Positions 8,589 to 14,442 of a stretch of DNA of 17,868 nucleotides are shown here, in pieces. Location of the stretch: positions 1-17,868 of the IMG/VR virus record IMGVR_UViG_2698536484_000013; one strand, 5' to 3'. This DNA comes from a virus. Its lineage: Duplodnaviria > Heunggongvirae > Uroviricota > Caudoviricetes. Position numbers and translations under genes: made by a program. How positions within the stretch are numbered: the stretch's first letter is position 1; each line of letters starts with the position of its first letter. The notes beneath the pieces were generated by a model. The model saw only the letters and a list, made by a program, of their open reading frames with translations. It searched no databases and was not told the origin of the DNA.

Positions 8589-8734
8589 AGTCAGCCTGCC
8601 AGAAATAGATGATGGTGATTCTATCGCTAGTCATTTGTTGAATATTTAACTCAATAAAAGAAAATTATTAGTGCAATTTTGATTGTGAAATGTATCATTC
8701 TGCCCTTAAGTAGGTTCTTCACGAGGAAACAAAA
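8589..8734. promoter_or_regulatory. AT-rich divergent control region between the minus-strand structural operon and the plus-strand accessory block
   Basis: 146 bp non-coding, AT-rich, between divergent first genes (8588 - and 8735 +); contains an operator-like 17-mer at 8661-8677 and a TAGAAT -10-like hexamer on the minus strand. Confidence 0.55.
8661..8677 (-). promoter_or_regulatory. C1-repressor-operator-like 17-mer (15/17 to recalled P1 consensus ATTGCTCTAATAAATTT)
   Basis: Reverse complement of aaaattattagtgcaat is ATTGCACTAATAATTTT; lies in the divergent promoter region and overlaps candidate -35 sequences. Confidence 0.5.
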
Positions 8735-8980
8735 TTGGCAGAACGTGTTGATGATGCAGAGCTGAGCATGAATCAATTAGAAGCTCTCAAAGACATGGCC
8801 ATCGATAACATCAGAAAGCAGGCACAGGTCGTGAGCCAGGTATTTACAGGGAAGTGTCGTTACTGCAATGAACCGATCGAATCAGGCATCTATTGTGACG
8901 CTGAGTGTGCGCAATGGCACAGGGAAGAGCAGGCTGCAAAACAGCGTAAATATGGCATGCGACCGGCAGGATTTGACTGA
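8735..8980 (+). CDS. Small putative zinc-ribbon protein
   Basis: 81 aa; TTG start with GAGGAAA SD 6 nt upstream; four cysteines CRYC-x9-C-x3-C; stop 2 nt before the next gene. Confidence 0.6.
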   Translation: MAERVDDAELSMNQLEALKDMAIDNIRKQAQVVSQVFTGKCRYCNEPIESGIYCDAECAQWHREEQAAKQRKYGMRPAGFD

Positions 8981-8982
8981 TT

Positions 8983-9561
8983 ATGTTGCGCTTTACTGAG
9001 GAAGAGTTTCAGGCTTTTAGTGAGCGTCGAAATAAGGGGCGGTCCAGGCCAAAAACCAAAAAGGATCCATTCTTATCGCTTGCGCCGGTAAAAGAAATTT
9101 CTCCACATGCGAAGGCACTTGCAGCACTGGCAAAGAACCCAGACCTGCGCGACGGAAATTGCGAGCACTTCGAGCAGGTTTTCATTTTTGATTACTTCGA
9201 ACGCAAGCACCCTGACATCTATGAGCTGTTGCATGCAACGCCTAACGGAGGGAAACGTTCAAAAGCAACCGCCGGGAAAATGAAGGCTGAAGGGCAGAAA
9301 AAAGGTTATCCGGACATGAGTCTCGATAAAGCATGCGGTATTTATCACGGCATGCGAATTGAGCTTAAAGAACCAAATGGTAAAGCCCCGACGAAAGAGC
9401 AGATCGCCTGGATGCGCAGGCTTAGAGAGGAAGGTTACTACGTCGTTCTTGCGTACGGTGCAGAACAAGCGATTACCGCCATCCTGGAATACATAAGTCT
9501 TAAAAAGGGTGAGGCTATTGAGCATGTATTGAACGGCGATAAGTGGTTGCATGCTGCTTAA
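8983..9561 (+). CDS. VRR-NUC domain nuclease (PD-(D/E)xK superfamily)
   Basis: 192 aa; HATPNGGKRSKATAGKMKAEGQKKGYPDMSL...GMRIELKEPNGKAPTKEQIAWMRRLREEGYYVVLAYGAEQAITAILEY matches the VRR-NUC signature (PNGG..R, PD, ExK, Q..W...L...GY). Confidence 0.85.
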   Translation: MLRFTEEEFQAFSERRNKGRSRPKTKKDPFLSLAPVKEISPHAKALAALAKNPDLRDGNCEHFEQVFIFDYFERKHPDIYELLHATPNGGKRSKATAGKMKAEGQKKGYPDMSLDKACGIYHGMRIELKEPNGKAPTKEQIAWMRRLREEGYYVVLAYGAEQAITAILEYISLKKGEAIEHVLNGDKWLHAA

Positions 9562-9627
9562 AATAATAAATTAATTAGTGCATGTACGCTCTTTGTGGTA
9601 GTGCACTTTAACATCGGGAGAATAATC

Positions 9628-9783
9628 GTGTCATCCAAGGTTAATTATGAGTCGCTGGCATCGGTCATGCCGCGTAATGAACAGGAAACAGATGCTGTAG
9701 TGGACCCTGTAATCGCTGAAATGAATGCTCGCCTGGAGGCTGAATTTGCAGCTGAGAATGAACATACCACCCAGGGCGACTAG
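9628..9783 (+). CDS. Small acidic hypothetical protein (51 aa from GTG)
   Basis: GTG 9628 with GGGAGA SD 6-7 nt upstream; the ORF track's first start codon is 9595. Coding status uncertain; overlaps the start of the next gene. Confidence 0.35.
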   Translation: MSSKVNYESLASVMPRNEQETDAVVDPVIAEMNARLEAEFAAENEHTTQGD

Positions 9784-12584: not shown

Positions 12585-13847
12585 ATGAGCACTTCAGCAC
12601 AAAACCAATCAATCGAAAATGTATCTATCCCTGATGTCCTGAATGCCGGTATCCCGGCCATTATCCAGAACATCCGGGCCGCGCAACGCCGCGTTAGTTG
12701 TGATGACCTCACAGCACGTTTTTTTGATAATGCGGTTCAGTCAGCGGAGATGCTTCACGCACAGCTTATTGATGTTTATAACGCAGAAGCTGATAGCCAT
12801 AACTCCCTGGTAGATGCAGCTGAAAATATGCAGTTGGATCTCGGTCTGAAGGGTAAAGAAATTGAAGAGCTTCAGCTGCAAATTGAACATTTGAAACGCC
12901 AGCAACAGGACGCGATCGACGATGCGACGCATGACGCCAACCAGCGTGCTGATAATGCCGAACGTATAAGCATTGAGCTGGAAACAAAACTCAATGGAAT
13001 GACCGCGATGGTTGAACTGCGGAACTCACAGATTTCAACGCTAAAATCTCAATATAAAGAGATCATGAAACTTGATCCTTTTAACCTTGAGAAACGCTAT
13101 AACAAAGCTAAAAGCGAGCGACAGGAACTGCGTAAGCAGGTCGCCGACCTTAACCAACAGCTCAAAAAAACTATTAAAGATGCAAGCGAAGCGCGCGTGG
13201 CATTTGCTAATAAAAAAGCAGAGGTTACCGCGCTGGTTAATGAGAATGCCAAATTTGCGACGCTCAAGAAGGAAATGTATGGCATTACTGAGCGCCGTTT
13301 CCCTGCAAGCAAACTTCATCCGACGTTAGGGCAAATCTCCTTCTTCCCGCGCCTCCTGGCTTATGGGATCTCATCGCCTAAAGAGTTCAATAACGAGCGT
13401 CCTTATATCGTTTCTAAGCTGGACTTTGCTTATCAGTTCTGCTGCGACATGGGCTATGCCATTGATATCCGAATCAACGAATGGTTGATGCCAAACTTCC
13501 AGCCGCTGGCCATTTTCCGCGAGTTCCAGCCGGAAGGTTGGGTAGAGTTCTTCCATGAATTGATCTGTAAAGAGATGGAAAGCCGCCGCCCGGAACTGGT
13601 CCGCCGTGTCGAGTGGGCGCAAGAGGTTATGTTGGCAGATGCAGAGCTGCCGTTCGAACCGGAATTTATTGATGATCTGGCAGCTAAAGGGCTGCATACC
13701 CTGTTTGATGTGGTTACCCGCCGTCATGAGCAGTTGGTTGTCGAATTGGGTTTAGAGGAAACAGCGGCAAGAAGACTTCTCGATGTTTGCTATGCACGTA
13801 GCGATGCATGGGAAAAAGAGAACGGCGGCACTATTTACGTTCGCTGA
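12585..13847 (+). CDS. Coiled-coil protein with C-terminal globular domain (function unknown)
   Basis: 420 aa; residues ~60-230 are heptad-rich (LQLQIEHLKRQQQD..., RQELRKQVADLNQQLKK); C-terminal half aromatic/Cys rich; followed by a strong terminator. Confidence 0.85.
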   Translation: MSTSAQNQSIENVSIPDVLNAGIPAIIQNIRAAQRRVSCDDLTARFFDNAVQSAEMLHAQLIDVYNAEADSHNSLVDAAENMQLDLGLKGKEIEELQLQIEHLKRQQQDAIDDATHDANQRADNAERISIELETKLNGMTAMVELRNSQISTLKSQYKEIMKLDPFNLEKRYNKAKSERQELRKQVADLNQQLKKTIKDASEARVAFANKKAEVTALVNENAKFATLKKEMYGITERRFPASKLHPTLGQISFFPRLLAYGISSPKEFNNERPYIVSKLDFAYQFCCDMGYAIDIRINEWLMPNFQPLAIFREFQPEGWVEFFHELICKEMESRRPELVRRVEWAQEVMLADAELPFEPEFIDDLAAKGLHTLFDVVTRRHEQLVVELGLEETAARRLLDVCYARSDAWEKENGGTIYVR

Positions 13848-13867
13848 CAGTTACAGTGTCACTTTTA

Positions 13868-13900
13868 ATGCTGGTGGAGTGCGCCCACCAGCATTTTTTT
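13868..13900 (+). terminator. Rho-independent terminator
   Basis: ATGCTGGTGG-agtgcgc-CCACCAGCAT 10 bp perfect stem followed by TTTTTT. Confidence 0.75.
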
Positions 13901-13919
13901 CGTCCAATGAGGAGGGCAT

Positions 13920-14426
13920 TTGAGTATTTTCAATAAACATGCACACCAGGAACGTCCGTATATCGTCATAGTCGATATTGATGGAACAATATCAGAGGCA
14001 ACTGAAGACAGACTGCATTTGCTTCCGCCACCAGGTAAAGGTGCATTAACAAAGGACTGGAACGAGTTTAATCTCGCCTGTGACACCGATACTCCCATTA
14101 CTCCAGTTATTGATATGGTGCGCCAGTTATTTAACGTTTACACGGTCTGGTTTGTAACCGGGCGCTGTGAGATCGCAAGGGATAAAACACGAGCCTGGCT
14201 GCGGAAGTACGTAACAAACGGGGCTGAGCCTTTGCTATCTATGCGTCCTGCCACCGATGACACAAATGACGGCCCAGCAAAGATTGATCTCCTTAAGAAA
14301 ATTGGTCTAAGTAAAATCGCGTTCGCGCTGGAAGATAAGATTGAAGTGGCGCGTGTTTTCAGGAGGCACGGCGTGCTTACGTTAATGGTCAGGGAGTATG
14401 AAAATGCGCTTCTTCACCAACAATAA
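13920..14426 (+). CDS. HAD-superfamily phosphatase (DxDGT motif)
   Basis: 168 aa; motif I VIVDIDGTISE near the N-terminus, motif II VWFVTGR, downstream Lys and acidic motifs (DLLKK, LEDK). The only in-frame start upstream of motif I is TTG 13920, with GAGGAGGG SD. Confidence 0.75.
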   Translation: MSIFNKHAHQERPYIVIVDIDGTISEATEDRLHLLPPPGKGALTKDWNEFNLACDTDTPITPVIDMVRQLFNVYTVWFVTGRCEIARDKTRAWLRKYVTNGAEPLLSMRPATDDTNDGPAKIDLLKKIGLSKIAFALEDKIEVARVFRRHGVLTLMVREYENALLHQQ

Positions 14427-14442
14427 TTGCTCTAATAAATCT
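14426..14442 (+). promoter_or_regulatory. C1-operator-like 17-mer ATTGCTCTAATAAATCT (16/17 to recalled P1 consensus)
   Basis: Begins on the last base of the HAD gene stop codon; best of the four matches. Confidence 0.55.

Follow-up and report, generated by a model that had tools for sequence, protein, structure and literature searches.

The window analysed here, a stretch of 17,868 nucleotides, is by identity and gene order a piece of a P1-like phage-plasmid, and five 17-bp sites in it are almost certainly the C1-repressed operators Op82, Op83, Op86a, Op86b and Op88 of such an element. They are given below with their names in P1 and P7 and their weight-matrix scores.

8661-8677, minus strand: Op82 (O26), ATTGCACTAATAATTTT, identical to P1 78528-78544 ('monovalent C1-controlled operator O26; former Op82'); Op(26) in P7; 25.0 bits; in the divergent intergenic region of gene 26 and pmgL.
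9568-9584, minus strand: Op83 (Oppp), CATGCACTAATTAATTT, identical to P1 79435-79451 ('monovalent C1-controlled operator Oppp; former Op83'); Op(hdm) in P7; 20.2 bits; between the pmgM stop (9561) and pmgN.
12285-12301, plus strand: Op86a (OpmgRa), ATTGCTCTAATAATTCC, identical to P1 82152-82168 ('former Op86a; controls expression of pmgR and pmgS'); Op(sht[a]) in P7; 21.5 bits; 2 bp past the pmgQ stop.
12334-12350, minus strand: Op86b (OpmgRb), ATTGCTCTAATAAAAAA, identical to P1 82201-82217 ('OpmgRb; former Op86b'); Op(sht[b]) in P7; 20.9 bits; inverted relative to Op86a and 15 bp 5' of the pmgR start (12365).
14426-14442, plus strand: Op88 (OpmgT), ATTGCTCTAATAAATCT, identical to P1 84293-84309 ('OpmgT; former Op88; 100 pct identical to Op88 of ... 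P1 sequence'); Op(hea) in P7; 26.3 bits; abutting the pap stop codon.

The whole window was scanned for the consensus ATTGCTCTAATAAATTT with at most three mismatches. Exactly four matches were found, the same four 17-mers, with the same match counts, that an initial annotation of this DNA had listed: 8661-8677(-) with 15/17, 12285-12301(+) and 12334-12350(-) with 14/17 each, and 14426-14442(+) with 16/17. The 13-nt core ATTGCTCTAATAA occurs unaltered in three of the four, as was also claimed, and with a single mismatch in the remaining one (8665-8677). At 9568-9584(-), the fifth site, 13/17 positions agree with the consensus, and the asymmetric 17-bp motif is thus matched by five sites at 13-16 of 17 positions. 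They lie in non-coding DNA beside gene starts and stops, as had been described; all five are between annotated genes, and the sole overlap with coding sequence is base 14426, where the pap stop codon ends.

Are these sites chance AT-rich words in AT-rich intergenic DNA, without function? The motif is indeed AT-rich and the sites are intergenic. But 200 dinucleotide-preserving shuffles gave 0.06 consensus matches on average, and not one of them reached four. A position weight matrix was also built, with a training set limited to the 15 P1 operators that lie beyond the stretch of P1 homologous to the window; these themselves score between 8.0 and 28.3 bits. The lowest of the five window sites is 9568-9584; the initial annotation was right that a site is present there, but called it a weaker related one, and it is not a lesser site but the full annotated operator Op83. 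The other four score 20.9-26.3 bits, and the next-best site in the window scores 11.5. Over 1000 shuffles there were on average 0.21 sites of at least 14 bits, and the best score had a 99th percentile of 19.1 bits, so that five sites at 20-26 bits stand well apart from shuffled sequence; the possibility that shuffled sequence yields such matches as often, which the initial annotation had itself raised, does not hold. Chance does fit what lies lower in the ranking. Sites of at least 10 bits appear 1.5 times per shuffled window, about the rate of the three sub-threshold sites (201-217, 2782-2798 and 9557-9573, at 10-11.5 bits). Two of these were rejected as extra operators because the shuffles yield such scores and P1 annotates none there: 2782-2798(-), with 11.2 bits, at the ban/dbn junction, and 201-217(-), with 10.3 bits, over the start of the SPFH gene. 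Chance also leaves unexplained why the five sites have exactly the sequence of operators annotated at the orthologous positions in P1 and P7. As an account of the five it has a negligible probability and is already refuted.

The identity with the catalogued operators is complete. The consensus used in the initial annotation is correct: the majority sequence of the 20 monovalent operators counted in the annotation of P1 (AF234172) is the same, and a published summary, which puts the monovalent P1 operators at 22, gives ATTGCTCTAATAAATTT verbatim and credits Lobocka 2004 (PMC8546580). The C1 protein_bind features of the P1 record (AF234172, Lobocka et al. 2004) map exactly onto all five window sites with an offset of 69867, and the five 17-mers are the same base for base, on the same strands, between the same flanking genes and at the same spacing. 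The four surrounding intergenic regions differ from P1 at 1-2 positions each, all outside the operators. P7 (AF503408), annotated independently, has the same five operators in the same order and orientation; all five window sites (5/5) lie at positions orthologous to operators defined in P1 and P7. In a 75%-identical relative, Cronobacter phage JK004, consensus sites are kept in intergenic DNA. Note that the attribution of C1 binding to these sites rests on the GenBank annotations of P1 and P7 together with the summary in PMC8546580.

The window as a whole follows the same pattern. Positions 1057-15315 are 99.1% identical to P1 AF234172 70924-85182 over 14.3 kb, which bears out the earlier identification of the element as P1-like; identity to P7 is 98.3%, and the five operators are common to all three. 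The gene order ban-dbn-5-6-24-7-25-26-pmgL...pap is kept as in P1 and P7, and identity and synteny across replication and morphogenesis genes place the window with the P1-like phage-plasmids (Punavirus). The differences from P1 lie towards the two ends. From 15315 onward the cargo 3' of Op88 is unlike that of P1, and part of this right-hand non-P1 portion is shared with P7. Upstream of ban, where P1 has tciABC, the window has a gene for an SPFH-domain protein, plus an IS5 insertion. The sole match in an Rfam search of the window was a tRNA.

Could the operators be present by descent only, unoccupied in a defective or rearranged P1 derivative without functional C1? The c1 gene lies outside the window; the window begins inside IS5, so insertion sequences have entered the element; and no record in the phage, plasmid and E. 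coli collections matches the window at full length, the best reaching 97% coverage at 99.3% identity. Against this, 80% or more of the window is present at 98-99% identity in some 250 plasmids and in 249 E. coli genomes. The nearest complete relative, NZ_CP123018.1, encodes a C1 protein identical to P1 C1.100 at 282 of 283 residues. It has the full operator set; Op68 and Op72ab are present there besides the same operators. The five operators are also unchanged although nearby intergenic bases have mutated. We regard an unoccupied relic as very improbable, and operators in use by C1 as the better reading.

How would C1 act at these sites? The sigma-70 promoters near them are only 'predicted' in the P1 record. 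As annotated in P1 these promoters overlap the operators, and the window contains their hexamers, though a generic consensus promoter scan did not recover them there. Around Op82 the cluster spans 8618-8698, with all hexamers identical to P1, and comprises these features transferred from the P1 annotation:

8618-8646: Lpa-dependent late promoters, LP26 on the minus strand and LPpmgL on the plus strand.
8660-8665: -10 of the predicted sigma-70 promoter P2pmgL.
8671-8676 and 8693-8698: -35 and -10 of the predicted sigma-70 promoter P1pmgL.

Op82 thus covers the P2pmgL -10 and the P1pmgL -35. Op83 is 13 bp 3' of the predicted PpmgN -10 (9550-9555), which reads TATGCT in P1 and CATGCT in the window. 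Positions 2-7 of Op86a (TTGCTC) are the predicted PpmgR -35, and the -10 at 12309-12314 has changed from TAAAAC in P1 to TAAAGC. Op88 covers the predicted P2pmgT -35 (14427-14432, TTGCTC), with the -10 TAAAAC at 14450-14455, and touches the P1pmgT -35 (14442-14447).

These overlaps invite the reading that the 17-mers are mainly promoter elements, a -35-like TTGCTC with an AT-rich spacer or UP element, and not repressor sites. In a 28-nt alignment most sites, including Op86a and Op88, indeed have a T-rich run followed by a TAA/TAT-type motif at about positions 25-28, the place of a -10, 17 bp after TTGCTC. Yet Op82, Op83 and Op86b are oriented opposite to their downstream genes, Op86b has no -10 at 17-bp spacing, and in the P1 record the sites are ascribed to C1, with earlier sequence entries cited that bear operator names (PP1OP88A, BP1OP88OP and, for Op82, XXBP1G26). 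The two roles are moreover compatible, as overlap of an operator with a -35 is the mechanism of repression. There is next to no probability that the sites are promoter elements in place of C1 operators.

With the sites read as C1 operators, the following scenario is suggested. In a lysogen C1 would be made from c1 elsewhere on the element and would bind each asymmetric 17-mer. In P1 the co-repressor Lxc stabilises this binding and the antirepressors Coi and Ant1/Ant2 antagonise C1 (summarised in PMC8546580). The operator either carries the -35-like TTGCTC at its positions 2-7 or lies over or just 3' of a predicted -10; bound C1 would therefore bar RNA polymerase from the promoters. The blocked promoters would be P1pmgL and P2pmgL (Op82), PpmgN (Op83), PpmgR (Op86a, backed by Op86b) and P2pmgT and P1pmgT (Op88). 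Four units would then be silent in the prophage and released upon induction: pmgL-pmgM (possibly with the gene 26 unit), pmgN-ppp-pmgQ, pmgR-pmgS-pap, and the unit of pmgT and the variable cargo. The target of Op82 differs between annotations, being the pmgL promoters in P1 and the gene 26 tail/baseplate operon in P7. The initial annotation had proposed repressor control of an accessory block. The P1 and P7 annotations agree that these are C1 operators, but the genes concerned are not only accessory: they include pmgR, which is essential for the production of infectious virions (PMC9024508), and, according to the P7 annotation, the gene 26 operon. The lambda-type CI/Cro operators are likewise repressor sites over early promoters that silence a prophage, but they are clustered dyad-symmetric sites in one immunity region, while P1 operators are asymmetric 17-mers spread over the genome. 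Binding of C1 to its operators was reportedly studied by Velleman, by Eliason and Sternberg and by Citron et al. in 1987-1989.

Between Op86a and Op86b, closing the pmgN-pmgQ gene block, RNA folding directly gives one further element:

12310-12340, plus strand: terminator-like hairpin, AAAGCGTGATG / TACACT / CATCACGTTTT followed by a T-run; 11-bp stem, -13.4 kcal/mol.

It is not listed by the generic promoter and terminator scan. Its T-run is complementary to the AAAAAA 3' end of Op86b, so that the A-run of the operator doubles as the T-tract of the terminator.

The DNA 3' of Op88 corresponds to variable region 8 as published for P1-like phage-plasmids (PMC9603915), and the ORF list gives one feature there:

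14621-17868, plus strand: co-directional gene block, a pmgT-like ORF followed from 15315 by non-P1 lambdoid-type small genes.

Among these genes, ORF 15829-16362 has a match to Pfam Ead_Ea22 (Ead/Ea22 protein). To the right of 14778 the window has no weight-matrix site above 4 bits, and the equivalent region of the closest relative has none of at least 13 bits. As 14621-17868 holds no further operator, the block is probably one C1-controlled transcription unit.

Then why is no operator found upstream of the helicase gene? The initial annotation had noted this absence, as it expected P1 to have one there. The absence from the window stands and the expectation is also right: in P1 the bivalent Op72ab lies 2.6 kb upstream of ban, where it heads a long operon and controls ban. 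No helicase operator is seen because Op72ab at this distance would fall outside the window; the closest complete relative has it some 1.8 kb to the left of the equivalent of the window start. The first 107 bases of the window are an IS5 terminus. IS5 has been inserted into the ban operon, between the expected position of Op72ab and the SPFH-trnI-ban genes.

There is a further question of whether Op83 is truly monovalent, and one feature bears on it:

9557-9573, plus strand: candidate weak partner half-site of Op83, CTTAAAATAATAAATTA, without P1 annotation.

The two 17-mers, 9557-9573(+) and 9568-9584(-), are inverted with a 6-bp overlap and an 11-bp offset, the arrangement also found in the bivalent operators Op72ab (ban) and Op99ab (c1), in which inverted 17-mers overlap by 6 bp. 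The 28-mer formed with the candidate half is identical to Oc1ab (Op99ab) at 22/28 positions. The candidate scores 11.5 bits, or 6.4 bits when Oc1b, a weak half-site, is omitted from the matrix, and no other operator annotated as monovalent has so good a partner (next best 4.6). The score is far below standard operators and above the accepted weak half Oc1b (8.0 bits, and -2.9 when left out). Given the fixed overlap, P is about 0.001-0.003. Among eight diverged P1-like elements the Op83 core and positions 5-15 of the candidate are each invariant in 8/8. In contrast to Op72ab and Op99ab, the candidate half is weak (6/11 matches outside the overlap), unannotated and partly over the pmgM stop codon. 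For 9557-9573 as a partner half-site these comparisons are no more than suggestive. It seems unlikely that Op83 joins Op72ab and Op99ab as a third bivalent operator, of the Op99ab type, with its weak half at 9557-9573, and, separately, that IS5 has uncoupled the helicase from C1 in this particular element. If Op83 were bivalent, C1 would bind it unlike the other sites of the block, e.g. with two C1 molecules and a stronger dependence on Lxc.

The sites are already known, having been in print and in the annotation for two decades along with their consensus and positions, so the analysis makes no addition to P1 biology in this respect. Points that might be new are small: a possible second half-site of Op83, the sharing of Op86b between operator and terminator, and IS5 in the ban operon. 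The value of the result is mainly the correct identification of the window as a P1-type phage-plasmid. Such phage-plasmids are common in E. coli and bear on the carriage of resistance genes. In the window the variable cargo 3' of Op88 is probably under the control of the prophage repressor.

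Are the 17-mers that were likened to operators of the C1 repressor of phage P1 genuine, and was the consensus used for them the right one? The C1 sites were gathered from the complete P1 record as annotated by Lobocka and colleagues (20 monovalent 17-mers and two composite "bivalent" features), and their majority consensus is exactly the one proposed, ATTGCTCTAATAAATTT. The same 17-mer is quoted from Lobocka 2004 in PMC8546580, which describes 22 operators scattered across the P1 genome, with Lxc as co-repressor and Coi and Ant1/2 as antirepressors. When the window was searched with this consensus, allowing up to 3 mismatches, exactly the four sites of the initial annotation were returned, with the match counts it had given. 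In 200 dinucleotide-preserving shuffles of the window the matches averaged 0.06 and never reached four, so the sites are in excess over shuffled sequence. As had also been claimed, the 13-nt core is exact at three of the four; it has one mismatch at the remaining one. A fifth site, CATGCACTAATTAATTT, matches the consensus at 13/17.

C1 operators of the window, with strand, match to the consensus and position in the P1 record (window = P1 record - 69867)
8661-8677, minus strand, 15/17; O26 (former Op82), P1 78528-78544
9568-9584, minus strand, 13/17; Oppp (Op83), P1 79435-79451
12285-12301, plus strand, 14/17; OpmgRa (Op86a), P1 82152-82168
12334-12350, minus strand, 14/17; OpmgRb (Op86b), P1 82201-82217
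14426-14442, plus strand, 16/17; OpmgT (Op88), P1 84293-84309

All five coincide exactly with protein_bind features "phage repressor C1" of the P1 record and equal the P1 operators at every base, while the four intergenic regions each differ from P1 at 1-2 positions, all outside the operators. The annotation of P7 has the same five sites under the names Op(26), Op(hdm), Op(sht[a]), Op(sht[b]) and Op(hea). Thus the earlier observation is confirmed and its interpretation supported; these operators had been known and annotated before. In the P1 record (AF234172), the 18-nt operator Omat (Op2b, 2628-2645) has been assigned to the minus strand but reads as an operator, CATGCACTAATAAATAT, on the plus strand only, which looks like a strand slip.

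To avoid circularity, a position weight matrix was trained without the P1 operators of the homologous region, on the 15 others only. With it, the five sites reach 26.3, 25.0, 21.5, 20.9 and 20.2 bits, against 11.5 for the runner-up in the window; in 1000 shuffles the best score had a 99th percentile of 19.1, and sites of at least 14 bits averaged 0.21 per shuffle. The site at 9568-9584 had been called a weaker relative; related it is, but as an annotated operator scoring 20.2 bits it is not weak. In NZ_CP123018.1, the closest complete relative, the same matrix finds known operator positions only, namely Op68, Op72a/b, Op82, Op83, Op86a/b and Op88.

The P1-like nature of the element is borne out by megablast, with 99.1% identity to P1 (AF234172, 70924-85182) over window 1057-15315 and 98.3% to P7; on this sequence comparison the window belongs to the P1 family of phage-plasmids. 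At least 80% of it is present in about 250 plasmids and in 249 of 5426 complete E. coli genomes, and no record among the phages, plasmids and E. coli compared matches it end to end. C1 of NZ_CP123018.1 is 282/283 identical to P1 C1.100, and we infer that the window's element encodes C1. There are two non-P1 segments, coinciding with variable regions 7 and 8 of P1-like phage-plasmids (PMC9603915). In region 7 an SPFH/Band_7 gene (211-1038, plus strand; Pfam E = 1e-30) stands in place of P1 tciA-tciC, and downstream of it a tRNA with anticodon CAT (1066-1141, plus strand; tRNA-Ile2 in the P1 annotation) is conserved. The other, 15315-17868, carries small genes of lambdoid-prophage type, including Ead/Ea22 at 15829-16362, matches Stx-converting and other lambdoid phages at 91-95%, and contains no C1 operator. 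Since the sequence leaves P1 at 15315, the pmgT-like ORF (14621-15349; 242 aa, against 309 aa for P1 PmgT) has a different C-terminus.

How might these operators act? P1 C1 represses by promoter occlusion, and the scheme of C1, Lxc, Coi and Ant comes from work in the laboratories of Schuster, Sternberg and Hays. The asymmetric 17-mers, strengthening by Lxc and antagonism by Coi and Ant1/2 are described in PMC8546580. C1 bound to the 17-mers would occlude the adjoining promoters, which are "predicted" in the P1 record and were not recovered by a generic promoter scan of the window. The predicted -35 hexamers of PpmgR and P2pmgT are the TTGCTC at positions 2-7 of Op86a and Op88, respectively, and the predicted -10 hexamers, TAAAGC and TAAAAC, follow 17 bp downstream. 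In a 28-nt alignment, most operators are followed by a T-rich stretch with a TAA/TAT-type motif at its end (around positions 25-28), the place of a -10 set 17 bp after TTGCTC. Op82 overlies the predicted P2pmgL -10 and P1pmgL -35, and the Lpa-dependent late promoters LP26 and LPpmgL, which diverge from each other, are 15 bp away from it. P1 and P7 are annotated with different directions of control by this operator. Op83 lies 13 bp downstream of the predicted PpmgN -10. Relative to P1, the -10 of PpmgN is changed from TATGCT to CATGCT (9550-9555) and that of PpmgR from TAAAAC to TAAAGC (12309-12314), the adjacent operators being unchanged. Repressor control of an accessory block had been proposed; the operators agree with the control, but the block is not merely accessory, because it includes pmgR, which is essential for infectious virions and whose knockouts give unjoined heads and tails (PMC9024508).

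Between Op86a and Op86b a terminator-like hairpin (12310-12340, plus strand; 11-bp stem, -13.4 kcal/mol) is followed by TTTTTT, the complement of AAAAAA at the Op86b 3' end. The same bases seem to serve terminator and operator, which may explain the three departures of Op86b from the consensus. Upstream of the pmgT-like gene, the leader that follows Op88 contains a strong hairpin (14475-14497) that has a T-run only on the minus strand, terminator-like for leftward transcription, and a 28-codon hydrophobic ORF (14526-14612, plus strand; MNTAFKIIMAAIYFWLFSITFGGIVAHG). According to the P1 record, DNA downstream of the EcoDXXI and R124/3 hsd loci shares 96-98% identity with this stretch.

Op83 may have a second, weak half-site, CTTAAAATAATAAATTA, at 9557-9573 on the plus strand, annotated as an operator in neither P1 nor P7. 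It overlaps Op83 by 6 bp, inverted and at an 11-bp offset, exactly the geometry of the bivalent operators Op72ab (ban) and Op99ab (c1). Its 11.5 bits (6.4 with Oc1b, the weak half of Op99ab, dropped from the matrix) exceed the score of the accepted Oc1b itself (8.0, or -2.9 when dropped), and no other operator annotated as monovalent has so good a partner (next best 4.6). Taken as one 28-mer, the two sites agree with Oc1ab (Op99ab) at 22/28 positions; the conditional chance is about 0.001-0.003, and across 8 P1-like elements differing by at most 6% here positions 5-15 of the half-site are invariant while the flanks vary. This evidence is suggestive of a bivalent Op83, not proof.

Then why is there no operator upstream of the helicase gene, ban, where one would be expected from P1? 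Its absence from the window holds, but the apparent conflict with P1 does not: P1 Op72ab (Obanab) is at 68667-68694, at the dmt 3' end, and ban starts 2.6 kb further downstream, at 71295, the long operon leader spanning a dicF-like region, tRNA genes, tciABC and trnI. On the locus compared from NZ_CP123018.1, Op72ab occupies 4116-4143 of that locus, homology to the window begins at 6001 (window 112) and the start of the helicase gene is at 7315; therefore Op72ab would fall about 1.8 kb beyond the left edge. An operator upstream of ban is indeed the arrangement of P1, and the site is just not part of the window. Cronobacter phage JK004, which shares 74.5% identity with the window across tail genes 7, 25 and 26 (6228-8552), has four consensus-like sites within a 20-kb stretch, against 0.06 expected. 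Two of its operator-like sites (one and three mismatches) lie in tandem at 3123-3167 of the locus, directly upstream of a ban-sized 1359-nt gene at the ban position, so the P1-type long leader seems absent there. The left end of the window falls in an IS5, whose terminal 107 bp make up positions 1-107 and are 106/107 identical to the IS5 of P1 mod749::IS5. Next comes the CTAA target (108-111), which the closest relative has without interruption. Situated about 100 bp upstream of the SPFH gene, within the ban operon, between the expected Op72ab position and trnI/ban, the insertion could free the helicase from control by C1.
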